A DNA stretch of 61,755 bases, the filler included, from Stramenopiles sp. TOSAG23-6 (lineage: Eukaryota): assembly GCA_900128565.1 (NCBI GenBank). It is 18 parts of 18 records of this genome, joined end to end, with 100 filler letters (N's around TTAATTAATTAA, not from the genome) between each part and the next. Parts side by side here need not be neighbours in the genome. Positions count along the whole stretch, not along the records: positions 10,376 to 13,726 come from LT637545.1; 17 more parts are not named here. One strand, written 5' to 3'. The stretch's first letter is position 1. Every line of letters starts with the position of its first letter. The translations under genes and the position numbers were made by a program. The notes under the pieces were generated by a model. It did not search any database. It saw only the letters and a program-made list of their open reading frames with translations, and had not been told where the DNA came from. Shown one piece after another: positions 12,373 through 44,652 of this stretch.

Positions 12373-13670
12373 TTAAAATGAAAAGAAAGCATCTACTTCA
12401 TTGTCTTTTGCCCATAATTTTAAATCGGTCATGATTGGCTTTCCACTTTTACGCATTAAAGTTTGACAATCAAACCCACTTGCATTGAGTAATGTAGCAG
12501 CTTCCGTCACAGATATTTGTGTTTGTAATGCCTTCAACGTAAACATCAGAAGTTTAGCTGCTCCTCCATAAATTACATATTCAGAGTCAATATTAGATAG
12601 AACCCATTTAAANTCAATGATCTGTTTTGCAATTAAAGTTGAAACAAATTCTGAAAAAAATTGCGGAGCTTTAGGTACGTCAATAGATATATCTTCCATA
12701 TTTTTGAGTGTATCAAATATACCAGTTTGTATGTTTTCTGAGGAAACGTATTTTGAATTAAATAAGGACACAACAAGTTCAATAGTGCGTTCCCGGGTGA
12801 CGGTTTCTTTTGGTGAACTATTTACAACAATGTTTAAAGCTAGTGTTACAAATATTTCTCTTTTTGGAAAGTTCATTTCTTTCATACATTCTTCTGCTTC
12901 ATTCACATCGTGTTCGTGTATGTATTCTTTAATTGTAGCATTACATTTTTTTGTATATAATTCTTCAGTCATTGGAACTGATTTTGGAGATTTTGCTACA
13001 GATTTTGCTACATTTTCAGTTGGAGAAATGACCGAAGGTTTTGAACTACCACCAGGTTTGAAGGACAAATTCAAATTTGATGGAACAGATGATTTTGCAT
13101 TTTTGAAGGCTCCTCGTACATCCTGAATATTCTGTTTGTTAGATGAATGAACTTTAGGCATGATGGGAGCACGATTACGTGAATCGCGATTTCGGTCACG
13201 ACGACGATTACCTCCACGATAATTACTTTTACCTCGAGAATGACCCATAGTTTCACGCGATTTAGCAATCTCTTCCTCCGCGGCCTTTTGACGAACTTCT
13301 GCCTTCGTAGTCGCTTTGTCTACTTCACGTCTTGGAATCCACTTATTGGCGCGCAACGCAATCACATCCTGAACCATTTATTTTGGAAAAATATTTCAAA
13401 ATTTTCTTAAAAAAAAAAATTGTTAGGTACAAAATTTCCTATAAAAAAAAAAAAAAATCATACAAAAATAAATAAAACATACATAAAACGCGTCCGACTG
13501 CACAATTTTTTATGTCTTGCTAGAATAGCCAGACGTTCGAAATATCGATCAACATAAGCTTTTACTTTTTTGTGATCAAAAATTTTACCAATATTAGTTA
13601 ATAGTTTACATACTGACTCCACGTAATCTTCTTCAGGAGTCTGAACATCAGTGAGGAGCATCGTAACGCA
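12373..13670 (-). CDS. EIF4G: Translation initiation factor eIF4G (end of MIF4G + MA3 domain), 5'-truncated
   Basis: VESVCKLLTNIGK, SRTRFM|VQDVIALRANKWIPRR, TIKEYIHEHDVNEAEEC, DISIDVPKAP. Confidence 0.9.
13376..13482 (-). other. Non-canonical intron GT...AT (ends AAT)
   Basis: TTT AT|GTATGT...CCAAAATAAAT|G GTT CAG restores RFMVQDV (family RFMLQDV). Confidence 0.85.
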
Positions 13671-13826
13671 AGTATTTTGGAAAAATATTTAAAAAAAAAA
13701 ATCGTTAGGTACAAAATTTCGTACGANNNNNNNNNNNNNNNNNNNNNNNNNNNNNNNNNNNNNNNNNNNNTTAATTAATTAANNNNNNNNNNNNNNNNNN
13801 NNNNNNNNNNNNNNNNNNNNNNNNNN

Positions 13827-13877
<51 letters not shown>

Positions 13878-13881
13878 ATAC

Positions 13882-14823
13882 TTGGTTCGGTCATATTCTA
13901 AAAGTTTTTTTTGTTGTGCTTCTGCAGCTTCAAGGGACATGGCTAATTTATCTGCTTGTGCACGTTGTCGATCAGCTCTTGTAGAGTAAATGCCTCGTCC
14001 TGTTCCATTTTTACGACTTCTTTGAACGTCCAATGCATTAAGAGGAGCTCCACAAAATTGGCATATTGTAAAAAAAAATATTTTTAGAAAAAAAAATATT
14101 AGGTTATATTATACAATTATAACAGGTTATATAATATAATATAATATAATATGTATATTACAAATGACAAATGACAAATGAAAAATGACAAAAAAATAAA
14201 TCATAGAAATGTATAGGATACATTTGCATAATACAATTGACATTTGAATTGGATGATAAAAACCTACATGGACCGAGTCCTTCAAGCTCACAAATAATTT
14301 TACCACATTCTAGACAATTTGTTAATACGCCTACTCCAGAACCATGCGTATAGTAATCTTTTCTATTAGAATCTTTACTGTTATATTGAGGAGTTTTCTT
14401 TACAACTTTCCATTTTTGTCTTGATAAAGTATTTGTTGCTTTCACTTGGTCTTGAGGCATTTGACCTTCTTTAGGTACATTATTTATTTTAGGCTTTCCT
14501 CGCTTCGTTTTATTTCGTGTCTTTCGTGTAATGGGTACAGCTGTGCGTGATTGACGAACAGGTTTATGTCTCTCATCTTCTTGTAAACGTCGTGCTATAT
14601 CAGCGTCACTCTCTTGAGGAGTTATACTAATACGTCTTTTTATTAGCTCTTTCGCAAATTTTCGAGCTGCATCTTCACTACCAAAGTATCCCATAGAAAA
14701 ATTAACCAATGTGGGCTCATCTTCAATACTAATGAGGTAATCTGCTATTTGATCTGTGTCATTGAATCCTAACTCTCGTCGGAGGCTTTTCTTTGCCCAT
14801 TTTTTCAAAGCAGCAGCATTCAT
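13882..14823 (-). CDS. TRIP4: Activating signal cointegrator 1 (C2HC5 zinc finger), 3'-truncated; intron 14063-14267 (GT...AT)
   Basis: NCLECGKIICELEGLGP|CQFCGAP and KLLEYDRT; the zinc finger is restored only by CCA T|GTAGGT...ACAATAT|GC. Confidence 0.85.
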
Positions 14824-15611: not shown

Positions 15612-16082
15612 ATTTTCATTTTTTTCAAAATTTTAATTTCGAAAAAGTTTGAATTTTTGGAAATTTTTAACATTACTTTTTGTTGCGTACGAAATTTACT
15701 AGTACGACAAAAACAAATTGTAAAAAGAAATTATTTATGTACATTAGGTACAAAAAAATGTTACGAATTTCATAATACACACTACAACACTACAAATAGT
15801 CCATGTATTTTGGAAAATATTTCAAAAAAATCTAAAAAAAATTGTTAGGTACAAAATGTCGTCCGAAAAATGAATTCAAAATTGAAAAAAAAATATAATA
15901 CATACATTCACTTCTCTTAACATTAGATACAAAAGTAAGAGTAAAAAAAAGGTAAGAGTATAACCCTACTATAATATTTTTATTGAATTGAAAAAAAAAA
16001 TAAAAATAAAAAGCCTTATTGTAAATCATTTTTTCATTTTTTATCCATCAAAATTCAATTAAAATGTCCATTTCAAAACATT

Positions 16083-17124
16083 TTATGGTACACGTGAAAA
16101 TTCAACTATTCTAGAAGCAGGTCTGTACACCACAAAGGAAAAATCAGCAGGGAAAGATCCAGGATTCCTGCAATGTATGTATATATATACATTTTTTTTT
16201 AAATTATGAAAAATAAATAAAAATAAGAAAAATAAAAAAAAAAATCTGAAACATTTCAATGAAAAAACAATATTTCATGTTATATCAAAAAAAAATTCTG
16301 AAAAAACATACATTGCTTGACATCCTTCATAATGGTTAAGATACTGATCATAATCATCAGCTAAAATCATTGCATCAGGTAGTGGGTACAAATACATTGA
16401 ATGATCAAGTGCCCAATGGATAGGTTTGACATACATTTTCAGAAAATATTTTGTTTTTGTTTTTGTTTTTGTTAGGTACAAATTTTACTATGAAAAAATA
16501 AATCGATATGTAATAGAAATTAAAATGTACATGCGGAGGAAGAGGACATAAGTGTCCTTGATCACAGACTGTTTTCAATAAATGATTTAAAATAGGATCA
16601 CTTTTTTCATTATTTTCTTCAATGACGTCACCATTTTCATCCAAATTATGAATAATTTCTCCATTTTCATCACATTCCTGCTCGTCTGTTGTCATAACAG
16701 AATCATTTGGATGTATGATACAATTTCTTCTCAATTTACTTAAAATATTTTCACGAAATAATACAATTTCTTGAGTATAATAGCGAATGCGACACGGATT
16801 TGTCGCGAATGTTGCAGTGGGTAACAATTGCATTAATCTTTTTGTAAATACTTTAGGAATGGGAGCACGTGGTAAACATCCTGAACCTCCTGCATCTGTT
16901 GGGCCAGGGACGAAAATAAATCGCGATTTTGAAATCAAATTTTTATGAGGTGAAATGATGGATGTCAACTTATTAAAATAACTCGTTAAATTTCCTCGAT
17001 CATCTTCTCCCTGACCAAATGGTTGCGACGTGAAATTACCACATAGGATAAACAATGTCGGCGGGCATTCATTAAATCCTTCAAAAAGTGAACTTAATTT
17101 ACCCAGGACACGAGAGTCATCTAA
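16083..17124 (-). CDS. POLE2: DNA polymerase epsilon subunit B, 5'-truncated
   Basis: PPTLFILCGNF, FIFVPGPTD, TNPCRIRYYTQEIVLFRE, QGHLCPLP, YPLPDAMILAD, NPGSF. Confidence 0.93.
16168..16311 (-). other. Canonical GT-AG intron lacking the TACCTAAC motif
   Basis: GCA AT|GTATGT...TTGCAG|G AAT CCT GGA gives AMNPGSF. Confidence 0.85.
16431..16530 (-). other. Non-canonical intron GT...AT (ends TAT)
   Basis: CCG CAT|GTACAT...GAAAATGTAT|GTC AAA CCT gives PLPPHVKPIHW (family PLPLYVCPVYW); no AG between the motif and the junction. Confidence 0.87.
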
Positions 17125-17276
17125 ATGTATTTTGGAAAAATATTTCAAAAAAAAATCTAAAAAATTTGTTAGGTACNNNNNNNNNNNNNNNNNNNNNNNN
17201 NNNNNNNNNNNNNNNNNNNNTTAATTAATTAANNNNNNNNNNNNNNNNNNNNNNNNNNNNNNNNNNNNNNNNNNNN

Positions 17277-18207
17277 GTGTAGTATATTGTAAAGGGATTA
17301 ACTTGACTGGAACTGATGGTAGCTGAGTTTCGACGGGTATGTATACGTCGTTACCCTCTGATCTGCTAATATCAACATAGCAGTACGTAAACATTAAAGT
17401 TCCATCAGCAACCACTTTAAAAGAAACAACTTCTTTATATGAAACAGTCTGATTTTTATCAAGAACGAACCTCGAGCTCAGTGGGTTGTTTTGACAGATC
17501 GGTGTCAACGCCAACGAGCCGTCAGAGAGCTTCAAGAAACTACATTGTGGCTTTGGTGGTTGTGTATTACTATCGCTAACACAAATTACACCAGTTGATG
17601 TTGTACTTGGTGGAACGGCAATTGTAATCGTTGGATTTTCTTGACAGTTCTGACAATCCTGTTTCCCGCAACTGCACTTCAACGAAAACTTGGTTATAAC
17701 ATTTATATTTTTTTGTTTTACGTCATCCCTAGAAACTTTTATTGAATGTGCAAGGTTTGGTTGCTTTTTCGATACATCTGCTAACATTCCATTTTTAAAT
17801 GTATAATGGTATTGATATATTTTGCGGTGTTGTGGTAATGCGAAGCAAGCTATTACCAAAATTGGTCCTTTTGTAAACAACTTCGTGTCTCCTTGTTTTT
17901 TACAAAATGAGTCAGCGGACGGTTTAATTGTTATTATCGGATATGTACTAAAGCTACAACCCCACACGTTAGGATCTGAAGCAGAGTCTATTTTGAATAA
18001 TCCATAATGAATATTCTGAGGGATAAAGGCTAAAACATTTGTGCACGGCAAATAGAAACTTGTGCAATCCTTGTTTGAACAGAGAAAACCGGGAAGGTTA
18101 GGATTGTCGCACGTGCATGGAGTTAACACTCCCAAATTCGAACCACATACTCGTGATGGTTGAAGTTCAATTATAATGGCTAGAAACAGGGGGAATAATT
18201 TCATCAT
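17277..18207 (-). CDS. Secreted cysteine-rich hypothetical protein, 3'-truncated
   Basis: Signal-peptide-like start, many Cys, intronless open frame to the contig end. Confidence 0.65.
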
Positions 18208-18479
18208 AATCCAGTGTATTGTTGTGTTTTTACCCTATGATGTTCTTTTTTTCACAGCGTTACCAAAAAGACGTTTGAAAAAAAAAATTTAAAAAAAAAA
18301 AAAAACACGAAAAATATTCCCTTTTTATTTTTGGAAATTAGTATTGAATTTCTAGAAAATAATGAAAGATAGAAACAAACCAATACTAGAATATGCTTTT
18401 TTTTTTCAACAGAAATAAAGCAATTGTACTCTTTTTTTCAGAGTCACTCATCATTTCCAAAATTTTACGTAAAATTGAC

Positions 18480-20482
18480 TTAGAAGCTGGAATTCCTTCT
18501 GCGTCTACTTATGTTTTTTCCAATTGCATGTATTGTGAAAAAAACAGGAAATAACAAAAAAAAATCGTTAGGTACGAAAGTTCGTACGAAAAAAATAATT
18601 TAGATAAAAATTGAAAAAAATAAAATAAAACGTACATGCACTTCAAATCCAATCGTTTCAACTTCTTCATGATTGAGTATATTTCTACCATCAAAAAGAA
18701 AAGCCGGTTTTTCCATACCATCATAAATTTTTTGGTAGTCAAATTCTTTAAAACAGTCCCATTCAGTTAAAATTGCAATTGCATGAGCTTTCTTCATCGT
18801 GTCATATGGTTTATGATTTTCCAAAGAAATCATCTTTCGTAAACCGGGTACCGTTTCTTCAGTGATACCACAGGTGTACTTTAACTCTTTGAACATTTCT
18901 TCTTCAGTCACTTGTGGGTCGTATACAGCAATAGTAGCTCTTTCGCCGAGTAATGCTTTAGCAATGTACGCAGCGGCTTGAAATGCAAAAAAATATTTGA
19001 AATTTTTTTTTTTTTTTTTTTGTTAGGTACGAAGTTTCCTATGAAAAAAAAAAGTCGACGTACAATAGCCATTATGTAAACATACAGTTTCTCGAGTATC
19101 GCCTGTATTTTTTTTAAATGCAAATCCAAGTAATGCAATTTTCTTTCCCGTAACTGTGTTAAACATACTTATTTTGTAAAAAATATTTTTTTTTTTTTTG
19201 AAAAAATATTTTTTTGTTAGGTACAAATTTTACTACAAAAAAAAATTTAAAAAAAAAAAAAAATTTGACATACTTTGAATAATTCTTTGAGAAAAACGAT
19301 TTTTTTGATAATTATTCATTGTAATCACAGATAGCCAATAGTCAGCAACTTCAGGTAAATTAAATGATTTACAAAGATATACCAAATTCAAAATATCTTT
19401 TTGAAAACAAGATCCTCCAAAGCCAACACTTGCTTGTAGAAAATTAGATGTATGAAAAAAAANATTTNAAAAAAAAAANTNGTTNGNTANGNTTGAATTC
19501 TCTAGGGTTAGGGTTAGATGTTGAGATTGAAAAAAAAATTTTAATTTTTTTTTTTAAATTAAAAATACGTCCAATACGTGGATCTGTGCCAATGGCATGA
19601 GCCACCTCAGCAACATTTGCATTCGTTTTTTCACACAATGCACTGATGGAGTTAATTGATGAGATCCGCTGTGCAAGGAATGCATTGGCCACTAATTTCG
19701 ATAATTCTGAAGACCATGGACTACAAAAAAAATATTTCAAAACAGTTTGAAATCGTTAGGTACGAAATTTCGTACGAAATGTTTTTTTTTGGAAAAAGGG
19801 GAAAATTAATGAATTATGAAAGCATACACAATGATGATGTAATTATTTTAGCTTTGGGTACCCAATGCGCATAAATAGCACACAACTTCGCTATCGCTTT
19901 TTGTCCGCTGGGTGTTCCCTGACCACCAATTAGAACTCGTGAAGGATTAGACAAATCGCGGATGGCAGTCCCTTCGGCTAAAAATTCAGGATTTGATAAA
20001 ATATCGAAAGTGACACCATTCTTACATGTTGATGATAAAATGCGTTGCAATGCGTAAGCTGTTTTTACTGGAACTGTAGATTTTTCAACCACAACTTTTG
20101 ACGTTGTTGATACTTCTGCAATTTTGCGGGCCGCTTTCTCCAGATTTGTAAGATTTGAAGCACAACCAGCGCCAATACCGTACGCTTTAGTCGGAGTATT
20201 CACACAAACAAAAATGATTTCTGCATCAGCAATCTCTTTATCAATATTTGTATTAAAAAAAAGGTTTTTTCCACGTACTTTTTGAATAATTTCCTCAAGG
20301 CCAGGTTCAAATATTGGAAGTTTTTCTGAGTTCCAACGATCAACCTGAGCTTGACTAATATCTACAACTGCGACGCGGATATGAGGGCATTTGTTTGCAA
20401 TCATTGCCATTGTTGGCCCTCCAACATACCCAGCTCCAATGCAGCATATACGCGTCGTAAACTGATTTGATGCGGATGACAT
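18480..20482 (-). CDS. UGDH: UDP-glucose 6-dehydrogenase, complete, 6 exons
   Basis: [69 protein letters not shown]; introns 19716-19827, 19448-19568, 19169-19273, 18978-19085, 18528-18635. Confidence 0.97.
18528..18635 (-). other. UGDH intron 5, GT...AT
   Basis: GTG CAT|GTACGT...CAATACAT|GCA ATT GGA = FEVHAIGK. Confidence 0.87.
18978..19085 (-). other. UGDH intron 4, GT...AA
   Basis: GAA ACT|GTATGT...GCATTTCAA|GCC GCT = RETAAAYIAK; using the AG one nt later frameshifts. Confidence 0.85.
19169..19273 (-). other. UGDH intron 3, GT...AA
   Basis: CAA A|GTATGT...CAAAATAA|GT ATG TTT = IQSMFNTV. Confidence 0.85.
19448..19568 (-). other. UGDH intron 2, GT...AT
   Basis: GGA C|GTATTT...CATACAT|CT AAT TTT = [12 protein letters not shown]; some Ns inside. 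Confidence 0.8.
19716..19827 (-). other. UGDH intron 1, GT...AT
   Basis: TTG T|GTATGC...GTAGTCCAT|GG TCT = LWSS; the AG 5 nt upstream is out of frame. Confidence 0.88.
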
Positions 20483-21012
20483 TATAAAACACTAAAATAT
20501 TTTCAACTTTCTTGTTCAACAAGGACTTGAAGTTGATTGGTTGTTGATTGATGATTTTTAAACGTAGGTGGTAATATTTTGTTTAAAATGTTTTCGGGTT
20601 AGGGTTAGGGTTTGAGAAATAAATNNNNNNNNNNNNNNNNNNNNNNNNNNNNNNNNNNNNNNNNNNNNTTAATTAATTAANNNNNNNNNNNNNNNNNNNN
20701 NNNNNNNNNNNNNNNNNNNNNNNNTTGTACCTAACAAAAATTAATTTTTTTTTTTGAAATATTTTTCCAAAATACATGTTTCCGTGAATTCTTTTTACTT
20801 ATTATTATGTTAATTATGTTTGTGTGTACTTTTTTATTTATGAAAATTGTACCAAAACCTTAGTATTATTTGATTTTCTTTACTAGAATGATGATAAATT
20901 GTTGTTTATTTTTGATATTTTGTGTTTACTTATAAAATTCTTAAAAATCTGTTCATTCAAATGTTCATTCAAATGTTCATTCAAAGGTTCATTCAAATGT
21001 TCATTCAAATAA

Positions 21013-22968: not shown

Positions 22969-23299
22969 ATGTATAGTGAAATATATATTAATGAAATAAA
23001 AGTTAGAAAAAAATATTATTTTGAAAAAAAAAATGGCTTAATTTCTAGGGTTAGGGAAAAATGGCTTAAATTCTAGGGTTAGGGTTTCGTAGGCTTAGGG
23101 TTGGGGGTTTTGAACACAGATTTGTTAGGTACAAAATTTACTATGAAAAAAAAAACGATATAAAAATTTGTTNNNNNNNNNNNNNNNNNNNNNNNNNNNN
23201 NNNNNNNNNNNNNNNNNNNNNNNNNNNNNNNNNNNNNNNNNNNNNNNNAAAAAAAAAACGATTTTTTTGGGGGGGTTAAAAAAAAAAAAAAAGACATGT

Positions 23300-25843: not shown

Positions 25844-25954
25844 ATGGACTTTGGAAAAATATTTCAAAATTTTTCTAAAAAAAAAAATTGTTAGGTACAA
25901 AATTTTCAAAAATAAATAAATTCGATTTTTTTGTAAAAAAAAAATAAAACATAC

Positions 25955-26795
25955 ATTCACCAACATAGTTTTCATTTTCTATCATAGGTGGCTCCCACTC
26001 TCCATCATCATCATCATCCCAGTCTTCTGGTTTTTCTGCATCTGGATCTGGGATATTTTCAGGTTCATCATCAAAACCTTCTGGTTTTACATCAGTTGGA
26101 TCTGGAATGAGTTCCTCATGCACCCAATTTTTTGGTTCACTCTGCGTTGGATCTTTGATCATTTTTGGCTTGAGAAATGACCAATCGTCTTCAAGTCTTC
26201 CAGACTTTTCAAGTTCACCATCAATTTGCATTTCATACGTATTATCTTTACGTAGTATAAGAGTATACACGTGGGACAGTTGGTCCAATTCGCATCGAGG
26301 TTCGTTTTTAGTCTGTAAATTGTTTCCCTTGTAGGACAATATAATATGCGTTTTACGGGTGGAATGTCCACAAATATCAGGGCCAAACATTACATTATAT
26401 TTCGTGTCGCCACCAAAACTGTCCTGATCTATACCAGGTGGGAGAAGTTTAATGTAAGCACCACCACAATCAATGTTTTGCTCGTGTTTTACGGAATATT
26501 GAACAATAAGATCTTTATCCTTGTTATCAAACACTTCAGAAAAAATAGCAGATAAACCAAAGAACTTTGCATCATTTGTTGTTTGAATACCCCTGTCACT
26601 TTTCTTTCCATACCATTGACCAGCTGAAGAAGTCCACTTTCCCATCTGAGTTGAAGGTTTCCACTTCGTTGGTTGAACCCATCGGTCTTCCCATCCTTTC
26701 CCAAAACTTTCTTGGAAATAAATCTTGGCGTCCGAAACCTTTAACATTGACAATACTGTCAATATCGACACTGTCAGTGCAATGACACGTAACAT
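25955..26795 (-). CDS. CALR: Calreticulin, exon 1 only
   Basis: Signal peptide, VKHEQNIDCGGAYIKL, MFGPDICG, IPDPDAEKPEDWD, GEWEPPMI; donor GTATGT at 25954. Confidence 0.95.
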
Positions 26796-27291
26796 TGCTT
26801 TGATTTCTGCTTTAAATAAGTATTTACTCTTTATTAAATTTAAAGACGTACTATATCTGGGAGGGAACAAACTTTTTCTGGCCACTCATCATAAGTAGTA
26901 GTCATCTCTGATATGAGATCTGATCATTCAAAAATTGTAGGGTTAGGGCAAGTTACCGGGTATTTGTTGAACAGATGTCTGTAATTATTCATATTATTCA
27001 TAATATTATGGCGAATAATGTGAATAATTTCATAATGATTTTACAATAGAATAGATATTTGACAACAGAATGGATTAAAAAAAAATAATGATTATCTACT
27101 TTGAATAAACAAAAAAAAAAGAAAAAAATACTTTGAGTTGATTTTTATACAATTTAAATAAAAAGCATTTTCTGAAACATCATTGGCTTATTATGAATCA
27201 ACTTTTTGACTGTAGCTAGGATTCGGAAAAAACACATCATTATTGTTACATTTAAAAAAAATGTTTTTTCTTTCCATTATTGAAAACCTCT

Positions 27292-28677: not shown

Positions 28678-30237
28678 TTATCTAAAAAACACGTCCAGTG
28701 CAGACCACATTTTTTGTGACTCTTTACCCTGTGGGTCAACCATATCAAATGTAAATGGCCCAATACCTCCCAAGTTTATGTATTTCTAAAAAAATAAAAA
28801 ATTTGAAATTCATTAGGTATGAAATTTCATACGAAAATATTAAAAAAAAAATGTTTTTTGTTTTACTATGAAAATTTCGTATGAAAGATAGTCAATCACA
28901 AAAAATGAAAACTGAAAAGGAAAGACCAAAACATACATTGAACGAGCAAACGAATATTTTAAAGCCAAACTTTCTGCATCATCAAACCAATATTGATACA
29001 CGGTACCATTCTCGACACTATTAAAGAATGGAGCTGACATAATTTATGAAAAANTATTTGAAAAATTTGATTTTTTTTGTTAGGTACAAAATTTACTACA
29101 AAAAAACAATTCGAAATTTCATGCTGAAATTGTACATATTATCGTCCCATTGTAGAGCAGTAGAAGCAACAGGGCTATGTTGTAGTTGGCGGATATCTTT
29201 GAATGAGATTTCGGACCCCGTGTATCATGAAAAAATATTTTTAAAATTTTGAATTTTTTTGAAATTTGTTAGGTACAAAATTTCATATAAAATAAAAATT
29301 AGCTACAACAATTCATATTGAAAACGTATGCCGCATCACTACATTTAGCTCCACGAAATGGTACAGGTTGAATGGGACAATATCGTGCTATTTGTTTTGT
29401 TCCTGGTAAACAGGCGTAGCGGTAACCATACCATGGAACACCTAATATTAGCTTTTTTTTCGGAACACCAATATCAAGAAATCTGTGAATCCCTTTCATA
29501 ACTGTGCTAATGGGTGAGTTAGCACTCGCTATACAAGCATTTGTTATTTGGCTTTGAACATCATAGTCCATAACGTATAGTAAGTCACTCGCCATAGCTA
29601 ATGATGTGTAATTATACGCCCGACCGTCAATATCATCAGGTGAATACGCAACACAAACACTCACTTGATAGGAAGGGTTTATTTTTTGTAGTTCCTTTCG
29701 TGTCAATGAAACAAGGGAAGAATATGTATGCATATCAGGTGTTCCTGCAAGAAGAGGGGATTCATAGTCAAACACCACACCATCAACAAAACGTGTAATT
29801 ATCTGAGTTATTACGGCTTTCACCCAAAGCAGACGGGCCGAAACTGTCTTTAATAAGCCAAGGTCAACGGAAGGAGCTGCGAGTAAAGCTCGGCTTCCAT
29901 GGGCGTGTGCTGCACAAGTCATTACATCGTTTTGGCTCCAGGCAACAGTAGATACATGTGTCCAATTCATTGCAGTTGGGGTCGAATTAGATGATAGGAA
30001 TCCGTATACCTCACCACTTGAGCGGACTGGTGGTCCAGAGATTGGTTTACACAGAGAATCATTTGCACAAGGACACCGTCTCCTTGGTCCAGGACGCCAA
30101 GTATCAGATAGGCTACGTGCGTAGTTAGATTCGTGACGCCATCGTGTACGGGAAAATCTCATTATATTCGCGCTACATGGGTCAAAAAACAACAGTAGCA
30201 AAATGATAGCGTTCGTAAACATTACAAAGCTGCACAT
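28678..30237 (-). CDS. CTBS: Di-N-acetylchitobiase (GH18), 4 exons
   Basis: CPCANDSLCKPI, VDGVVFDYE, DLLYVMDYD, LILGVPWYG, PFRGAKCSDAAG; introns 29220-29329, 29039-29135, 28778-28936. Confidence 0.9.
28778..28936 (-). other. Non-canonical intron GT...AT
   Basis: TCA AT|GTATGT...AAATACAT|A AAC TTG GGA = ARSINLGGIG. Confidence 0.82.
29039..29135 (-). other. Non-canonical intron GT...AT
   Basis: AAT AT|GTACAA...AAATTAT|G TCA GCT CCA = WDDNMSAPFFN. Confidence 0.82.
29220..29329 (-). other. Motif intron AT...AC
   Basis: GCG GC|ATACGT...TACCTAAC...CATGATACAC|G GGG TCC = CSDAAGSE. Confidence 0.78.
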
Positions 30238-35029: not shown

Positions 35030-36304
35030 ATGAAATGTATACTGTTATTTGCTCTTCCAATGTTTGTTGTGGCAAACATTCGCGTGGTTTCCTCTGTTTT
35101 GGAGAATCCCAGTTTTCACATTGATGCTTTGCTGCATCGTAATATGACAGACCCGCACTCACTTGCGGTTGAGCTTGCAACTTCTGAGCTTGCCGCTGTC
35201 GTCAAGTGGACAAGTAAATCATCCGTTGATTGGCCAAATAAAACGCATACATCAATTCCTGTGATCATGGCTCATGGTATGGGAGATTCATGTTTTAACT
35301 CTGGAATGAAACAAATCGCAAAGGATGTTGGTGCCCATGTAAATTCAGTTGCTGTTTGTGTACCAACTGGGTCTAACTGGCTCACGGACACTTTAAATGG
35401 ATTTTTCAAATCAATGGATAGTAGTGTTGATTATTTTGCAAAGCGTATTCAGTCCGACCATCGTCTCAAAGGTAGCACATTTGTAAATATGATTGGTTTT
35501 TCGCAGGGTAATTCAATTATTCGTGGATATATTCAAAAATATAATGGTGAACCGGGTTACCCTACAGTACGCACTTTTCTATCTGTACATGGTACTGTAC
35601 AGGGAGTAGGTGGGTTTCCACAATGTAATCCAGAGCATGGTATTATATCTTCATTTTGTCGTGTTCTTGATCGAATCCTTGGTGAATTTGCATACAACTC
35701 CCTTGTACAAAATATGTAAGTTTTATTTTTTTTCAATTTTTTATCTATAATTTTTTTTCGTACGAAATTTTGTACCTAACGATTTTAATGTTTGAAATAT
35801 TTTTTCATAATCTATTCTATTTCAAGCGGATTATTATCGAGATCCTTATAAAACACATGATAAAAGTTATTTAAAACATTCTCAATTAGCAAAATGGAAT
35901 AATGAAGGTAGTAATCCAGACCCAAAAATCAAAGAACGATTTTTAATGACTGATAAATTTGTGATGGTAAAAGCTCTCGGGGATACAATGGTATTTCCAA
36001 ATGAAGGTGTACATTCAAATTTTTCATTTTTTTTTTTTTAATTTGTACCTAACAAATTTTGAATCTAACAAATTTTAATTTTTTTTTGAAATATTTGTTT
36101 ACAATTTGTGAGCACTGGGGATGTTTTGCTGATAATTCATTTACAAAAATATTGAAAATGAACGAGACCATTTGGTACAAATCGGATTTGTTTGGATTAA
36201 AGACTGCAGATGATCAAGGTAAAATTTATTTTGAAGAAACTCCAGGGAACCATCTTCAATTTAGCGAGAAACAATTATTTGGTTGGTTAGATAAATACTT
36301 TTAA
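35030..36304 (+). CDS. PPT1: Palmitoyl-protein thioesterase 1, 3 exons
   Basis: PVIMAHGMGDSC, IGFSQG, QADYYRDP, DLFGLKT, GNHLQF; introns 35716-35815 and 36009-36109. Confidence 0.93.
35716..35815 (+). other. Non-canonical intron GT...AT
   Basis: AAT AT|GTAAGT...ATAATCTAT|T CTA TTT CAA = VQNILFQA. Confidence 0.83.
36009..36109 (+). other. Non-canonical intron GT...GT
   Basis: GAA GGT|GTACAT...ACAATTTGT|GAG CAC TGG = PNEGEHWG. The in-frame AG three nt later would drop the Glu, so it is not strictly excluded. Confidence 0.6.
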
Positions 36305-36733: not shown

Positions 36734-37716
36734 ATGAGTCAGCATTCACTGAACGCATCAATATCAATGGCGGCAGAAATGCCAAACAAATTTAAGAGTG
36801 CAAAAGAAGTCCAACGTTCAATAAAGTCTATGCAAAAACAGTGTATCGACTACAAAATGAAGATTGAAAAAGCCCAAAATACAGAAAGTAGTTTAGATAA
36901 AGAAATAATAAAACTTAAAAAGATGCTAAGTAGCCACCGAGCTGCTATCGGTGGACCAACAGCACTAAGGGAAAATAATGCCGCCGTAAAACAACAACTA
37001 GATATTATGCAACGACGCTTAGTCCACGCGCAACGTCGGAAGCTCAACTGCAAAAGCGACTTGAAAACGTTGGTGAATTCCATCAATTCTATACGAGTGG
37101 ACAACGTGAGACAATTAAAGGGATTGGATGAATTGACCTGTGATCAGCTTAAGATTGATTCTGCGATATTACGTATAAATAAAAGCATTCGCCAACTAAA
37201 TTTACAGTGTGAAGAATGTGAAGCAGATGAACATGAACTATTGGAAAAGTCAGAAATATTTGCTGAAAAATCTAGGGCTCTTCTCAATAAAAAGGAATCA
37301 GAAGAAAAAGTTATCACTGTCTTAGAAGAGGATGTGGCTAAAAAAGAAGATTCTCCAGAACCAACTATAAGAATAGGATCATTATCTCTTGAACAAGAAA
37401 GAAGAATGCAAGATCAGATAGACAGTGCTGTGACCTGGAGAAAATCGACTAAAAAATCAGTTAAGGAAGCAAAGGAAAAGATTGAGACGTATGTTTTATT
37501 TTTTTTTTTAACAAAAAAATCGAATTTTTTTTCATAAGAAATTTTGTACCTAACAATTTTTTTTGAAATTTTTTTTGAAATATTTTTCCAAAATACACGT
37601 ATAGTGAATTGTTTAATCGCGTGAAAATTGTTTCTGGAGCATCGAATCTAAATGAGTTTATTGAAATGTACAAAAGTAGGGACGAGGAAAACTTTCGAAA
37701 ATTAGTCTTTGTAAAT
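36734..37716 (+). CDS. Outer dynein arm docking complex subunit (ODAD1/CCDC114/DC2-like), 3'-truncated; intron 37489-37598 (GT...AC)
   Basis: Coiled coil, then IETYSELFNRVKIVSGASNLNEFIEMYKSRDEENFRKLVFVN; GAG AC|GTATGT...AAATACAC|G TAT. Confidence 0.7.
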
Positions 37717-37964
37717 GTATGTTTTATTTTTTTTTCAAATTCGATTTTTTTTTTTATAAAAATTTTGTACCTAACAAATTTAAGTTTTTTTTTTTTCAAA
37801 NNNNNNNNNNNNNNNNNNNNNNNNNNNNNNNNNNNNNNNNNNNNTTAATTAATTAANNNNNNNNNNNNNNNNNNNNNNNNNNNNNNNNNNNNNNNNNNNN
37901 AAATCGTTAGGTACGAAATTTCGTATGAAAAAAAAATTAAATTAGAAATTCATATCAAACGTAC

Positions 37965-40900
37965 ATATTCACCAGTTTCCTCAACTTGCATTACTTTACA
38001 CATCATTTCAAAATTCATTTCACCTGATCCTGTAGCATCAAATTCTTGAAATTTTACAAATGCAAGTTCTAAAAAGTCTACATCTACATTATTATCTGAC
38101 TGGAATTTTCGCATAAGTTGTTTCTTTTCAGCTTTAACTACTGCCCGTTTTTGTTTATCAGATGTACCTTCGGCTTTTGTTAATAATGCACCAACTTTAT
38201 CGGCTGCAGGTGGACCAGCGATTGCAGGGGGTGGTGGAACTCCAGCAGCACCAAAGCTTGGAGGAGGTGGGATCCCACCAGGACCAAAACCAGCACCTGG
38301 ACCAACTGATGTTGAATTGAAGTCATGACGACTAGGATCAGGATGTTTGCATAATTTATAAAATTCTTCATATGAAACTTGTCCATCATGTATTGTGAAT
38401 TTTTTTTTTTTTTTGGTTTAAAAAAATCGTTAGGTACAACATTTCGTATGAAAAAATAATTAGATACAATATTGAAATGAAAACGTACACCATCCAAATC
38501 AACCATTTTAATCATTTCATTGATTTCTTCATCTGTGATCATTTCACCCATACATATGAGACAATGCCGCAACTCTGCCGCACCTATAAACATATTTTTA
38601 TCTAAATCTAAGAACCGAAATGCATCAAAAATTTCCTTATCTGAAAATTCATCTGATGCTGCAAAAGTACCCTCTTGAATATCAGCTTTCTTTTCCTCAA
38701 GTTCTTCTTCATTTCTTTCCGCTTGTAACTCTGCTTCTTCCTCCTCAGCTTCTTTATCGATTCTATCTCGTTCATCAAATGCATCAACAAGGGGTTGTCG
38801 TTGAGGAAACGCAGCACCAGCAGGAGCTGTAAAATCAAATCTAATTAATAATTCACCAGCTGTATCCTCCTGACCCCATCCTCTTTTCTTATTATAAATG
38901 GGTATCCATTCTTCTATATAGCCTTTTTTGAAATATGGAAGTAAACTGATTTTTTGTTTTCCTATTAAATCATCACTAGAGATCATATCTTCATCAAATA
39001 CTTCTAATATTAATTCATATTGATCAACAATCATAAATTCTACAACTTCATCCCACATTGGTTCAGTACCACCATCAGTATCCGTTTTTGTTCTCTTTAC
39101 TTCCTTGCCTGTGTTTGCACCCTCTAATGTAAATTTAATATAAGGATCTTGTCTACCTAATGAATCTGCATCAAATAGTTTACGTCCTTGTTTAGGAGTA
39201 ATTTTTAATTTACCTGCAGCAAAAAATTCAAATGCAAATTCAATTTCACCTGCATCTTTCTTTTTTTTATCAAATATTTTGATGAATTTCTTATCTCTTT
39301 GACCAACGTCCATTCTAGTATACGGAACTACAGATAATTCAGTTTCACCTATTAAATCATCCGCGCCCACATCTTCATCATAACATGAAAGTTTTAGTGG
39401 ATGTTGCCATATTGTATTATCAATATAAAACTCAAACTCTTCCTCCTTAAAGTATGGATTCTGTCCACCATCTTTTATAGTCTTTCCCCGACGTTTAAAT
39501 GTTTTATTTGAACCTAAAGAAAATTTCAAATATGGATCTTGCTTCCCCCAACTATCCATATTCTTAAGATTTCGACCATCAAATGCAGTTAGAACTAATG
39601 TACCTTGTTTTACTGGTTCAAACCATATTTCTAATTCTAATTCTCCAGCAGGTTGCTGTTGTCCTGATTTCTTATGAATCCAAGTTAAGTCATACCAGTC
39701 TCTTTCTGCTTCTAATCCTTCAAAAAAAGGTAACATTGAAATCGCCGTTTCCCCAAGTAAATCATTACTAAAGCTACCTTTATTCCAAACACGAAGTAAG
39801 AGAGGCATGTCATTGTCTTTTAACATATGCTCTGGATTAAATAAATTGAAAAAGCAAACTTGCTTTTTAAAATCAGGAAACATTGATTGACCTTTCACCA
39901 CTTTTGTTTTCTTTACAGGTCCTTTTTTCAAAGAGGAAACTTTGAACTCACAAAATATATTTAATTTTTCTTCTTTACCTACTTTTGTACTTCGACCAGC
40001 AGAATGTTTATGAATGTCTCGTCCTTGATGTAATCGTACCATAAAACGACCAGGTCGAGGGACCCAACTTTCTTGCATATCTGGTGGTGGTGGCGGAGGA
40101 GGTGGACCACCAACACCTGAAGCACCATCTGCTCCTGGTGGTGCAAATGAAGGAGGTGCCATAGTAGGTGGTGGCGGAATATCACTTGGTGGTGGTGGAA
40201 CACCAGGCGCAGCTGTTGGCGGCGCATCAGGTTTTGGTGGAGGCGAACCAGGCTTTGGTGGTGCACCAGGTGCACCTTCTTTTGCTGCTACAGTTGCTGC
40301 ATCTTCTGATGGCGGAGGTGCTGATGGTGCTGGTGGACGAGCTGGTGGTCCTGGTCTTGCTGGTGGTCCTGGTCTTGCCTGTGGTGGGAGCGGACGTCCA
40401 GCACCCACTTGGGCAGTCTTTGGAGCACTACCATCAGGGGGTCTTTTAGATGGTGGCGGTGCTCGTTTGGTTGGACTACTAGGAGCTTTTGGTTTTGGCC
40501 TTGGACCAGGTGGACCAGGTCGTTTGGGTTTTGCTTGTGCAGCTAAAGCTCTTGCATTTGGTTTAGGTGGCGGCCTTGATGGTGCAGGTCGCTTCGATTT
40601 TGCTACAATTTTAGCTGCCATTGGCGGTGCTCTACCCTGACTTTCTAATGGTGCCGCTCCCGCTGGTGCCTGACTTTGTGATGGCGGCGCAGTAACTGGT
40701 GCAGATATTCCAGGTGAAGCTCCAGGTGGTAAAGGTCGACCTATTGCAGCAGATGGTAATTTCATTGGTGCTGCACCCTGAGGCATTGAGGGTGGAGGTC
40801 TTCTGCCCGCCGGACTTCGAGGTGGAGGTCTCTTTGTTGGTATCGTAGTAGTAGTAGTTGTAGTTGTTGGTGCAGCTGAAGGTGCAGGTCGTTGAGGGGG

Positions 40901-41226
40901 GAGCGGTCTTTTACCTCCACCTGGCATCCCCAAAGGTGCAGGAGGCTTTGATGGTGGAGCTCGTTTAGTTGGTGGAGCTCGTTTGTTTGGTGGTGCTCTT
41001 TTAGTTGGTGGAGCACGACCAGCAGCTGCTACATTTGCATTACTGTCTGTTGAAGCACCCATCTTTCTATTTGCACCACCTGGCATTCCTAAAGGTGCGG
41101 GTGGTTTCGATGGTGGTGCTCGTTTTGTGCTTTGAACTTTTTCTAATGACATCGGAGGAGCTTTATTCGGTGGCGGCCTCTTGGTTGCAATTGTAGCTTG
41201 ACCAGGTATTGGTTTATTTGGTGGCG
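37965..41226 (-). CDS. Pro-rich, 3x C2 domain, EF-hand protein (partial); intron 38388-38488 (GT...AT)
   Basis: GKQDPY/GRQDPY C2 motifs; GGT|GTACGT...ATACAT|GAT GGA restores the EF loop DLDGDGQVSYEEF. Confidence 0.9.
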
Positions 41227-41390
41227 NNNNNNNNNNNNNNNNNNNNNNNNNNNNNNNNNNNNNNNNNNNNTTAATTAATTAANNNNNNNNNNNNNNNNNN
41301 NNNNNNNNNNNNNNNNNNNNNNNNNNAAATCGTTAGGTACGAAATTTCGTATGAAAAAAAAATTAAATTAGAAATTCATATCAAACGTAC

Positions 41391-44300
41391 ATATTCACCA
41401 GTTTCCTCAACTTGCATTACTTTACACATCATTTCAAAATTCATTTCACCTGATCCTGTAGCATCAAATTCTTGAAATTTTACAAATGCAAGTTCTAAAA
41501 AGTCTACATCTACATTATTATCTGACTGGAATTTTCGCATAAGTTGTTTCTTTTCAGCTTTAACTACTGCCCGTTTTTGTTTATCAGATGTACCTTCGGC
41601 TTTTGTTAATAATGCACCAACTTTATCGGCTGCAGGTGGACCAGCGATTGCAGGGGGTGGTGGAACTCCAGCAGCACCAAAGCTTGGAGGAGGTGGGATC
41701 CCACCAGGACCAAAACCAGCACCTGGACCAACTGATGTTGAATTGAAGTCATGACGACTAGGATCAGGATGTTTGCATAATTTATAAAATTCTTCATATG
41801 AAACTTGTCCATCATGTATTGTGAATTTTTTTTTTTTTTTGGTTTAAAAAAATCGTTAGGTACAACATTTCGTATGAAAAAATAATTAGATACAATATTG
41901 AAATGAAAACGTACACCATCCAAATCAACCATTTTAATCATTTCATTGATTTCTTCATCTGTGATCATTTCACCCATACATATGAGACAATGCCGCAACT
42001 CTGCCGCACCTATAAACATATTTTTATCTAAATCTAAGAACCGAAATGCATCAAAAATTTCCTTATCTGAAAATTCATCTGATGCTGCAAAAGTACCCTC
42101 TTGAATATCAGCTTTCTTTTCCTCAAGTTCTTCTTCATTTCTTTCCGCTTGTAACTCTGCTTCTTCCTCCTCAGCTTCTTTATCGATTCTATCTCGTTCA
42201 TCAAATGCATCAACAAGGGGTTGTCGTTGAGGAAACGCAGCACCAGCAGGAGCTGTAAAATCAAATCTAATTAATAATTCACCAGCTGTATCCTCCTGAC
42301 CCCATCCTCTTTTCTTATTATAAATGGGTATCCATTCTTCTATATAGCCTTTTTTGAAATATGGAAGTAAACTGATTTTTTGTTTTCCTATTAAATCATC
42401 ACTAGAGATCATATCTTCATCAAATACTTCTAATATTAATTCATATTGATCAACAATCATAAATTCTACAACTTCATCCCACATTGGTTCAGTACCACCA
42501 TCAGTATCCGTTTTTGTTCTCTTTACTTCCTTGCCTGTGTTTGCACCCTCTAATGTAAATTTAATATAAGGATCTTGTCTACCTAATGAATCTGCATCAA
42601 ATAGTTTACGTCCTTGTTTAGGAGTAATTTTTAATTTACCTGCAGCAAAAAATTCAAATGCAAATTCAATTTCACCTGCATCTTTCTTTTTTTTATCAAA
42701 TATTTTGATGAATTTCTTATCTCTTTGACCAACGTCCATTCTAGTATACGGAACTACAGATAATTCAGTTTCACCTATTAAATCATCCGCGCCCACATCT
42801 TCATCATAACATGAAAGTTTTAGTGGATGTTGCCATATTGTATTATCAATATAAAACTCAAACTCTTCCTCCTTAAAGTATGGATTCTGTCCACCATCTT
42901 TTATAGTCTTTCCCCGACGTTTAAATGTTTTATTTGAACCTAAAGAAAATTTCAAATATGGATCTTGCTTCCCCCAACTATCCATATTCTTAAGATTTCG
43001 ACCATCAAATGCAGTTAGAACTAATGTACCTTGTTTTACTGGTTCAAACCATATTTCTAATTCTAATTCTCCAGCAGGTTGCTGTTGTCCTGATTTCTTA
43101 TGAATCCAAGTTAAGTCATACCAGTCTCTTTCTGCTTCTAATCCTTCAAAAAAAGGTAACATTGAAATCGCCGTTTCCCCAAGTAAATCATTACTAAAGC
43201 TACCTTTATTCCAAACACGAAGTAAGAGAGGCATGTCATTGTCTTTTAACATATGCTCTGGATTAAATAAATTGAAAAAGCAAACTTGCTTTTTAAAATC
43301 AGGAAACATTGATTGACCTTTCACCACTTTTGTTTTCTTTACAGGTCCTTTTTTCAAAGAGGAAACTTTGAACTCACAAAATATATTTAATTTTTCTTCT
43401 TTACCTACTTTTGTACTTCGACCAGCAGAATGTTTATGAATGTCTCGTCCTTGATGTAATCGTACCATAAAACGACCAGGTCGAGGGACCCAACTTTCTT
43501 GCATATCTGGTGGTGGTGGCGGAGGAGGTGGACCACCAACACCTGAAGCACCATCTGCTCCTGGTGGTGCAAATGAAGGAGGTGCCATAGTAGGTGGTGG
43601 CGGAATATCACTTGGTGGTGGTGGAACACCAGGCGCAGCTGTTGGCGGCGCATCAGGTTTTGGTGGAGGCGAACCAGGCTTTGGTGGTGCACCAGGTGCA
43701 CCTTCTTTTGCTGCTACAGTTGCTGCATCTTCTGATGGCGGAGGTGCTGATGGTGCTGGTGGACGAGCTGGTGGTCCTGGTCTTGCTGGTGGTCCTGGTC
43801 TTGCCTGTGGTGGGAGCGGACGTCCAGCACCCACTTGGGCAGTCTTTGGAGCACTACCATCAGGGGGTCTTTTAGATGGTGGCGGTGCTCGTTTGGTTGG
43901 ACTACTAGGAGCTTTTGGTTTTGGCCTTGGACCAGGTGGACCAGGTCGTTTGGGTTTTGCTTGTGCAGCTAAAGCTCTTGCATTTGGTTTAGGTGGCGGC
44001 CTTGATGGTGCAGGTCGCTTCGATTTTGCTACAATTTTAGCTGCCATTGGCGGTGCTCTACCCTGACTTTCTAATGGTGCCGCTCCCGCTGGTGCCTGAC
44101 TTTGTGATGGCGGCGCAGTAACTGGTGCAGATATTCCAGGTGAAGCTCCAGGTGGTAAAGGTCGACCTATTGCAGCAGATGGTAATTTCATTGGTGCTGC
44201 ACCCTGAGGCATTGAGGGTGGAGGTCTTCTGCCCGCCGGACTTCGAGGTGGAGGTCTCTTTGTTGGTATCGTAGTAGTAGTAGTTGTAGTTGTTGGTGCA

Positions 44301-44652
44301 GCTGAAGGTGCAGGTCGTTGAGGGGGGAGCGGTCTTTTACCTCCACCTGGCATCCCCAAAGGTGCAGGAGGCTTTGATGGTGGAGCTCGTTTAGTTGGTG
44401 GAGCTCGTTTGTTTGGTGGTGCTCTTTTAGTTGGTGGAGCACGACCAGCAGCTGCTACATTTGCATTACTGTCTGTTGAAGCACCCATCTTTCTATTTGC
44501 ACCACCTGGCATTCCTAAAGGTGCGGGTGGTTTCGATGGTGGTGCTCGTTTTGTGCTTTGAACTTTTTCTAATGACATCGGAGGAGCTTTATTCGGTGGC
44601 GGCCTCTTGGTTGCAATTGTAGCTTGACCAGGTATTGGTTTATTTGGTGGCG
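41391..44652 (-). CDS. Duplicate copy of the C2/EF-hand gene contig
   Basis: Contig 41327-44652 appears identical to 37901-41226 (offset 3426). Confidence 0.9.

Follow-up and report, generated by a model that had tools for sequence, protein, structure and literature searches.

How is the 3' end of an intron chosen when no AG marks it? The question is raised by a 61,755-nucleotide (nt) stretch of DNA from Stramenopiles sp. TOSAG23-6 (assembly GCA_900128565.1), referred to here as the window. On its minus strand, an eIF4G-like gene with MIF4G and MA3 domains is interrupted by an intron that begins with GTATGT, ends in AAAT and has no terminal AG. A sequence-only reading of the window listed 16 junctions, most of them of this kind, and proposed that the 3' splice site is set by a ruler, about 16 nt past an AAATA element that could be the true branch site or a protein-binding site.

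We favour, with modest confidence, the view that these are spliceosomal introns of an introner-like family, in which the acceptor is set by position, 16±1 nt past AAATA and a T-run, and the last two bases come from the target of insertion. We advance more tentatively, as a possibility that we still doubt, the proposal that the spliceosome counts its 3' cut from an internal signal instead of reading AG, and that a transposon-derived family is thereby excised exactly, together with its 2-base-pair (bp) target duplicate, wherever it has inserted.

A repeated intron family that starts with GT and does not end in AG

The window holds repeated introns that start with GT and do not end in AG, and they recur beyond chance. 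The box TACCTAAC is present in 39 copies against 0.93 expected, and the 21-mer AAATATTTTTCCAAAATACAT, allowing up to three mismatches, in 17 copies against 0.08 expected. Three introns in unrelated genes (A, F and I in the list below) are similar over their whole length of about 110 nt, so the copies make up one repeated family and do not merely share a signal. The sequence-only reading noted neither this kinship nor the match between exon and intron ends described below. Our set comprises 24 family introns, 22 measured together and two (G and H2) read by hand; conservation was counted position by position in 20 introns, one of which, X, had its 5' end misplaced by 5 nt in that count.

The intron in the eIF4G-like gene, called W, illustrates the arrangement.

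13376..13482, minus strand: intron W (107 nt), GTATGT...AAAT, supported by frame and in part by homology
13477..13482, minus strand: 5' splice site GTATGT
13422..13429, minus strand: branch-like box TACCTAAC, preceded by a T-run and ATAGGAAATTTTG
13392..13396, minus strand: AAATA, which opens the 21-nt 3' block
13376..13391, minus strand: the 16-nt stretch TTTTTCCAAAATAAAT from AAATA to the junction; its final AT is also the last two bases of the exon (13483-13484)

The upstream exon of W aligns to the MIF4G domain of eIF4G as far as ...RF, and the MA3 domain follows downstream; the downstream exon gave no match when compared with the PDB. The reading frame permits cuts only at 13, 16, 19 and so on nt past AAATA.

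Family introns are mostly 97-121 nt long, typically about 100-115. The 5' splice site GTATGT is followed after 37-162 nt (usually 50-65) by a T-run, C(A/G)TA(C/G)(G/T)AAATTTTG and TACCTAAC; downstream come an A/T-rich spacer of 14-39 nt, AAATA and a last 15-17 nt to the 3' end. All but one of the 24 introns begin with GT, the exception (c1) beginning with AT. Over 20 introns the six positions of the 5' site are G in 19, T in 20, A in 19, T in 15, G in 14 and T in 18, the variants being GTACGT, GTAAGT, GTACAT, GTATTT, GTAGGT, GTATAT and, once, ATACGT. TACCTAAC or a near variant with a CTAAC or CCTAA core is present in 24 of 24.

Conservation at the 3' end extends over the last 21 positions, which read AAATA-TTTTT-YY-A-N-AAT-A-C-AT. 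Among 20 introns, A occupies positions -21 to -19 in 16-18 and T positions -16 to -12 in 17-19; A is found at -7 in 19, T at -5 in 18, C at -3 in 13, A at -2 in 19 and T at -1 in 17, and the first exon base is G in 14. The full set of 24 ends in AT 18 times, AC twice, AA twice, GT once and AG once. The terminal trinucleotide thus varies, as had been noted, but less than was implied: position -2 is A in 23 introns and position -1 is T in 19.

Not every intron of the window belongs to the family. The POLE2 gene, which carries family intron U, also contains an ordinary GTATGT...TTGCAG intron (16168-16311, minus strand) with neither the TACCTAAC box nor the 3' block. Here a gap-free extension of the 5vbn_A alignment from residue 490 sets residues 496-498 across the junction. 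A pathway that uses AG therefore coexists with the family.

Junctions fixed by homologous proteins and the position of the 3' cut

Can the ends of these introns be trusted? Homologous proteins fix 12 family junctions, and a 13th junction fixed in this way is that of the ordinary GT-AG intron. Nine of the 16 junctions listed earlier are exact to the residue: four in UGDH (19716, 19169, 18978 and 18528), two in PPT1 (35815 and 36109), one in POLE2 (16431) and two in a chitobiase gene (29220 and 29039). The junctions at 13376 and 14063 agree with the reading frame and are partly supported by homology, and those at 2376, 9829, 37598, 55629 and 38388 are placed by the reading frame only.

In the UGDH gene (18500-20491, minus strand), full-length relatives set all five junctions residue for residue. 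These are P0008 (478 amino acids) and P0009 (479 amino acids), which are 75% and 74% identical to UGDH exon 1. Junction 1 gives KIITSS-L-WSSEL, where the relatives have KIITTNLWSSEL; junction 2 gives RIG-P-NFL, where they have RIGPNFL[KR]ASVG; junctions 4 and 5 give TRET|AAAYIAK and GFEVH|AIGK, as in both. A GT-AG reading is impossible for all five introns. In PPT1, the 1eh5_A alignment brackets one junction codon with residues 150 and 153, and the next junction falls between residues 214 and 215. Aligned blocks extended without a gap place 5vbn_A residues 457 and 458 of POLE2 at 16431. For chitobiase, a tblastn comparison with five homologues yields CSDAA|GSE, DDNM|SAPFF and ARS-I-NLGGIGP; the first of these, CSDAAGSE, as found in P0122, P0125, P0126, P0129 and P0143, arises only from a cut at 29220..29329.

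Other boundaries fare poorly. AT-AC boundaries reached by sliding the junction 2 nt were rejected (impossible in P and S; 5 of 20 introns overall), as were AG ends reached by a 1-nt slide, which D, Q, M and others do not permit. If the donor is taken as GT, a cut 16 nt past AAATA keeps the frame in 11 of the 14 introns tested that have a (G/C/T/A)AAATA anchor, the exceptions being P (17 nt), R (15 nt) and N. For gene J no homologue was found, and the genes that carry the consensus copies A, F, I and J match no informative Pfam family.

The introns other than W are listed here, with AAATA+16 denoting a 3' end 16 nt past AAATA and, in most entries, the evidence for the junction given last.

1145..1305, plus strand: Z, GTATTT...CAT, AAATA+16; frame-compatible
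2267..2376, plus strand: A, consensus copy, GTATGT...CAT, AAATA+16; frame permits only 10, 13, 16 and 25
9829..9995, minus strand: Y1, GTATGT...CAT, AAATA+16, box TACCTAAA followed by ACCTAAA repeats; frame
14063..14267, minus strand: X, in a zf-C2HC5 / TRIP4-like gene, GTAGGT...TAT, AAATA+16, box AACCTAAT; frame, with zf-C2HC5 profile positions 17-33 just before the junction
16431..16530, minus strand: U, POLE2, GTACAT...TAT, AAATA+16; 5vbn_A residues 457, 458
18528..18635, minus strand: T, UGDH intron 5, GTACGT...CAT, no AAATA; GFEVH|AIGK as in P0008, P0009
18978..19085, minus strand: S, UGDH intron 4, GTATGT...CAA, AAATA+16; TRET|AAAY as in P0008, P0009
19169..19273, minus strand: R, UGDH intron 3, GTATGT...TAA, AAATA+15, junction slidable from -2 to +6; UGDH relatives
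19448..19568, minus strand: Q, UGDH intron 2, GTATTT...CAT, AAATN+15, CTAACCCTAACCCTAG in place of the box, single N bases in the stretch; RIG-P-NFL as in P0008, P0009
19716..19827, minus strand: P, UGDH intron 1, GTATGC...CAT, AAATA+17, upstream AG unused; L-W as in P0008, P0009
24715..24869, minus strand: O, GTATAT...AAT, AAATA+16
28778..28936, minus strand: M, chitobiase, no AAATA at -21..-17, ends AGAAATACAT; exactly one residue between P0143 positions 353 and 355
29039..29135, minus strand: c2, chitobiase, GTACAA...TAT, AAATA+16; DDNM|SAPFF against homologues
29220..29329, minus strand: c1, chitobiase, ATACGT...CAC, the AT...AC member, AAATA+16; both junction bases fixed by homologues
35716..35815, plus strand: D, PPT1, GTAAGT...TAT, AAATA+16; 1eh5_A residues 150, 153
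36009..36109, plus strand: E, PPT1, GTACAT...TGT, AAATA+16; 1eh5_A residues 214, 215
37489..37598, plus strand: F, consensus copy, GTATGT...CAC, exon end also AC; frame and family likeness
38388..38488, minus strand: L, in a C2/EF-hand gene, no AAATA, ends CACAATACAT, identical copy at 41814-41914 in a duplicated scaffold; frame
49241..49409, minus strand: K, GAATT in place of AAATA, ends CTACAATTCAT
49936..50091, plus strand: G, GTACGT...AAAG, the sole family member with an AG end, AAATA+16; hand-read, frame-compatible
50153..50264, plus strand: H2, GTATGT...TAT, AAATA+16, box TACCTAAA; hand-read, frame-compatible
55629..55741, minus strand: J, consensus 3' block; frame
58620..58728, minus strand: I, consensus copy; frame and family likeness

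The distances claimed from AAATA to the junction are reproduced at all 14 sites: 16 nt at 12 of them, 15 nt at 19169 and 17 nt at 19716. It is also true, as had been stated, that AAATA is missing at 18528 and 38388. In the whole set, 20 of 24 introns have AAATA (or AAATN), with 16 nt to the 3' end in 17, 15 nt in two (R and Q) and 17 nt in one (P); for the 22 introns measured together the figures are 18 with AAATA and 15 of these at 16 nt, and the hand-read G and H2 both have 16. The distance stays at 16±1 nt while neighbouring segments of the introns vary by tens of bases.

This distance predicts the cut better than any terminal trinucleotide does. CAT or AAT triplets that occur upstream, at +9 to +14, are unused in D, U, S, c1, c2 and X. 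In P an AG at +12, five bases upstream of the cut, is skipped. In S, P, D, U, c1 and c2 the final 9-11 nt bear little resemblance to the consensus, and the cut still falls at 16-17. The claim that position and not sequence defines the acceptor is borne out to this extent, but AAATA is neither isolated nor indispensable and the ruler is not exact. AAATA is simply the first five bases of the 21-nt block; within that block the T-run, the A at -7, the T at -5 and the A at -2 each match or exceed AAATA in conservation.

What, then, is the branch site? The sequence-only reading placed TACCTAAC further from the 3' end than AAATA and at a looser distance. This holds, although the range is not the 35-47 nt given but 34-59 nt (21 of 22 measured introns), a spread that rules out a ruler running from TACCTAAC. 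Its suggestion that AAATA is the true branch site is unlikely, for a CCTAA(C) or CTAAC box is found in every intron and AAATA is not. The same universality makes the TACCTAAC/CTAAC box the most likely location of the branch point, to judge from sequence conservation.

Origin of the terminal bases and competing explanations

Where do the last two bases of the intron come from? In 15 of 22 introns they are identical to the last two bases of the preceding exon; pairings of shuffled 5' and 3' ends give a mean of 9.7 (P=0.00035). The same comparison over 20 introns gives 14 (P=0.0005). Twelve of the 15 matching pairs are AT/AT; the other three are AC/AC in F, GT/GT in E and AA/AA in R. Exon and intron also end alike in the hand-read H2 (AT/AT), though not in the hand-read G. 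The identity looks like a 2-bp target-site duplication. End bases derived from the target would account for the varying terminal trinucleotide, and would imply that those bases do not themselves specify the cut. Every copy that is flanked by long open reading frames (ORFs) is in the sense orientation, which fits removal from RNA.

In the mechanism we propose, each copy consists of a normal GTATGT end, a T-run, C(A/G)TA(C/G)GAAATTTTG and the yeast-like box TACCTAAC, a variable spacer and the 21-nt 3' block, and the intron ends at the last base of the block, normally ...A-T|G and not AG. The family would have spread by insertion with duplication of a 2-bp target, making the intron the sum of the element (GTAT...ATAC at the consensus) and the second target duplicate. 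The terminal dinucleotide would on this account be target-derived and variable. The splicing machinery would place the second-step cut by position relative to signals within the element, in a window 16±1 nt past AAATA and the T-run, with A preferred at -2 and the ...ACAATACAT end motif giving redundant help.

A structural ruler is not supported by the folding results. At the level of the consensus the GTAT and ATAC ends are complementary, with 124 of 176 possible pairs at offset 0. A stable overall fold is not supported: 14 introns fold no better than their shuffled versions, with z-scores from -2.52 to +0.72, ten of them within -0.8 to +0.8, and the terminal 4-bp helix is in the minimum-energy fold only of A, F and I. 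Judged by eye, a candidate hairpin, GTACGAAATTTCGTAC, has a left arm that varies without compensating changes, and in the palindrome-like GTACGAAATTT(T/C)GTAC, left of the box, a single arm varies.

Several observations weigh against a simple ruler from AAATA, or against positional choice of the acceptor in a family spread by insertion. AAATA is dispensable: it is missing from four of the 24 introns (L, T, K and M), two of which (T and M) are verified by homology. Three homology-fixed introns depart from 16, with 15 nt in R and Q and 17 nt in P. A rule that takes the site nearest 16 with A at -2 and a base other than G at -1 succeeds in 18 of 18 introns, but it was fitted afterwards, and the AG end of G at +16 weakens its second clause. 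The constant length could be plain inheritance without insertions or deletions in a short block. With 24 introns, all from a single 62-kilobase scaffold chain of a low-quality assembly with N bases, the sample is small. The excess of exon/intron-end identity owes most to the three pairs other than AT, and the exon before the one ordinary GT-AG intron ends in AT as well. A helix joining the two intron ends is not supported: 124 pairs compare with a shuffled mean of 123.1 (P=0.40), and there is no covariation. No transposase or autonomous element was seen in the window, to which the transposase search was confined.

RNA offers no help either. Two runs of one seawater metatranscriptome sample, which holds 6% of the sampled words, were compared with positions 17277-19462. 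No spliced joints were found there, at an exon depth of only 1-5, and one RNA contig runs 9 nt into intron S, as unspliced RNA or DNA would. Finally, three copies are incompatible in frame with a GT start combined with the block end and need a shift of 1-2 nt either way or a 1-nt sequence error.

5265..5443, plus strand: B, in a COMM-domain gene; the frame requires a 3' cut either 2 nt short of ...AATACAT or 1 nt beyond it; end approximate
8709..8814, plus strand: C; the frame requires a 3' cut either 2 nt short of ...ACA(T/C) or 1 nt beyond it; end approximate
25844..25954, minus strand: N, in the calreticulin gene; a GT start plus AAATA+16 produces a stop codon

At the site of N a tryptophan is kept in five of five full-length relatives, in the context Y/F-K-G-E-W in four and Y-K-G-P-W in P0250. 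Its TGG codon is obtained only if the +1 G of the intron joins the G after ...CCAT. The problem would be explained by an unusual 5' cut or by a single-base error, given the poor assembly.

The rival that survives best dispenses with the ruler: the whole 21-nt block would be a sequence signal for the acceptor, read by a protein or by pairing with a small nuclear RNA (snRNA), and the spacing would reflect an absence of insertions and deletions in a recently copied motif. We consider this unlikely, though several observations favour it. Conservation spans the entire block, and the introns that lack AAATA (L, T, K and M) have the best-preserved end motif, ...ACAAT(A/T)CAT. Exactly five Ts are present in 13 of the 14 copies with a ...CCAAA... 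core, and the sole copy with four (V, at 15851) lies outside coding sequence. It does not explain why S, P, D, U, c1 and c2, whose ends are unlike the consensus over 9-11 nt, are still cut at 16-17, nor why the terminal dinucleotide varies with the exon and not with the block.

At the other extreme is a strict ruler, in which AAATA would be the branch or protein-binding site from which the 3' cut is measured and TACCTAAC would have another role. The 16-nt distance in 17 of 20 AAATA-bearing introns fits it, as does the persistence of AAATATTT in the diverged introns S, P, E, D, U, X, c1 and c2, whose last 9 nt differ. The succession of AAATA, U-run and junction also resembles the order of branch site, pyrimidine tract and acceptor, with the usual spacing from branch to acceptor. 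We nevertheless rate this reading a clear outsider. The four introns without AAATA are still removed at the homologous end motif; AAATA is conserved no better than the rest of the block; three homology-fixed introns have 15 or 17; and a CTAAC-type box, close to the classical yeast branch consensus, is present in all 24.

Less probable again, in our estimate, is a transformed minor (U12-like) spliceosome that serves the family while the major one removes ordinary GT-AG introns, an idea compatible with the other readings. Extended motifs, tolerance of ends other than AG and positional choice of the acceptor are all U12-type behaviours, and the family has extended conserved 5' and branch-like motifs, non-AG ends, an AT...AC member (c1) and a positional acceptor; POLE2 moreover holds two classes of intron in one gene. 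The U12-type 5' splice site, however, is RTATCCTT, and its branch motif TCCTTAAC lies about 10-15 nt from the 3' end. Here the 5' site is GTATGTTTT, its GTATGT being shared with the ordinary intron; the box is 34-59 nt away from the end, well past that range, and an Rfam search of the window returned 0 matches and no snRNA gene. Among stramenopiles, Blastocystis is reported to have short minor introns by the hundred, mostly AT-AC (PMC10639083).

The least credible alternative by far is that the copies are removed from DNA, in the manner of the internal eliminated sequences of ciliates, or not removed at all from dead or mis-assembled genes: short direct repeats at both ends, weakly inverted termini and unspliced copies in contigs of the RNA library are in its favour, but the copies have a spliceosomal type of 5' site and branch box, those inside long ORFs are without exception in the sense orientation, a conserved protein is restored exactly at thirteen junctions, of which five belong to a single gene that looks essential, and we know of no precedent for DNA elimination in stramenopiles.

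Related introns, gene annotation and the setting of the family

If positional choice of the acceptor is correct, a widespread group of uncultured marine protists splices out most of its introns with no terminal AG, which almost every other eukaryote requires for the second step, with the 5' site and a yeast-like branch box remaining normal. The family would be a natural system in which to separate distance from sequence in 3'-site docking, and would clearly illustrate intron gain by insertion, a target duplicate becoming the intron end. If the machinery does count, the family brings with it all the requirements for its exact excision, and gene finders that look for GT-AG would miss most introns of an entire marine lineage.

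Comparable systems are known. Introns of Giardia and Trichomonas have fused branch and acceptor motifs. Like the family they show a short, fixed distance from an internal motif to the 3' end and a yeast-like 5' site; unlike it they have a terminal AG and a fixed motif that is at the same time the branch site. U12-type introns also have long conserved motifs and tolerate several terminal dinucleotides, and according to the Padgett laboratory their acceptor is reportedly chosen largely by distance. Their consensus motifs differ from those of the family, whose box is 34-59 nt from the end and which is abundant where U12-type introns are rare. Minor introns with AT-AA and AT-AT termini are described in PMC10639083.

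The non-canonical introners of Amoebophrya, a parasite of dinoflagellates (Farhat et al. 2021, PMC7789003), are among the nearest parallels: repeated introns of a marine protist without GT-AG ends, with short direct repeats that overlap the borders, resembling non-autonomous transposons and defeating standard gene prediction. As described there, however, both intron ends are variable and inverted repeats of 8-20 nt form a hairpin that joins the exons. The family has a normal GTATGT end, a strong branch-like box and a 3' end fixed in a conserved block, and it shows no stable fold (14 introns), no covariation of its ends and no exon-joining hairpin. The introners of Micromonas and Aureococcus have terminal inverted repeats and target-site duplications (PMC12130899; 10.1101/2022.06.06.494994). 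As is proposed for the family, they became multi-copy by insertion, and the spliced unit is the element plus one target duplicate. Such introner families are described as using canonical splice motifs (PMC7789003), whereas here the duplicate itself would supply the last two bases of the intron and AG is dispensable. Many introns without GT-AG are also reported in appendicularian tunicates (bioRxiv 10.1101/2025.08.15.670264) and in euglenozoans and diplonemids (PMC12621601). These are other lineages with other boundary rules, and the two abstracts mention no TACCTAAC box or fixed 3' block.

As far as our literature searches reach, the phenomenon is undescribed for this lineage. No published description of these introns was found in the literature searched, which extended to main texts in part; supplements lie outside it and may hold detail. 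In the text covered, PMC5778133 uses 'intron' twice in passing and 'splice' not at all, PMC12614181 uses neither word and PMC8163842 uses 'splice' once; none of the three describes these introns.

The practical weight of the family lies in annotation, because its introns break ordinary gene prediction. The organism's own UGDH and chitobiase genes are present as EukProt models GSMAST32... (P0005 and P0121), names that suggest a marine stramenopile of the MAST-3 group. Model P0005 is wrong at all five UGDH junctions and, at 438 amino acids against 478-479 in relatives, is 40 short. The calreticulin model P0241 (gene 25844-26885, minus strand) reads through into the intron. Table 1 of PMC5778133 gives only 2,694-3,289 genes for assemblies of about 19-21 megabases. 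The distortion of P0005 and P0241 suggests that published gene counts and functional inventories for such genomes are probably too low.

The family or its relatives are abundant in the seawater sample, as DNA or unspliced RNA. More than 100 contigs match the 40-nt box region at 18556-18595 with 90-95% identity and a summed depth of about 7,500, against 1-5 for nearby single-copy exons. The 16-mer AAATTTTGTACCTAAC matched at least 118 metagenome loci; each had a single match, none had the 3' block among the matches listed, and we attribute these hits to chance.

The window itself is AT-rich, with a guanine-plus-cytosine content of 0.23-0.44 in 2-kilobase windows. It chains about 18 scaffolds by falling length, from 3,359 down to 3,319 bases, joined by linkers of the form N44-TTAATTAATTAA-N44, of which three examples follow.

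3360-3459: linker
13727-13826: linker
17177-17276: linker

Adjoining scaffolds are unrelated, so a donor and an acceptor on opposite sides of a linker, such as the donor at 13880 and the acceptor at 13670, do not make one intron. Across that linker the TRIP4-like gene ends at 13880 and the eIF4G-like gene begins at 13711. Many scaffolds start or stop within family introns, as a repeat that interrupts assembly would cause. The scaffolds at 37901-41226 and 41327-44652 agree at all 3,326 bases (0 differences); the sequence encodes a 1,032-amino-acid ORF with C2 and EF-hand domains, and the pair is either an assembly duplicate or a true tandem copy.

One family copy, V, lies between genes, with no coding frame downstream.

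15796-15905, minus strand: V, T4 in place of T5; AAATA+15 reaches its ...ACAT end

Telomere-like CCCTAA or ACCTAAA repeats occur in or near introns, for example at 19500-19530 (minus strand), 9868-9895 (minus strand), 20595-20610, 23060-23130 (minus strand) and 50783 (plus strand). There are ten CCCTAA runs of two or more units and one run of the CCTAAA type. In UGDH intron 2 and in Y1 such repeats replace the TACCTAAC box, with the CTAAC core kept. Two longer introns, K (49241-49409, minus strand) and G (49936-50091, plus strand), have two box copies each; one pairs TACCTAAG with TACCTAAC, the other TACCTAAC with TGCCTAAC, a pattern that suggests internal duplication or nested insertion.

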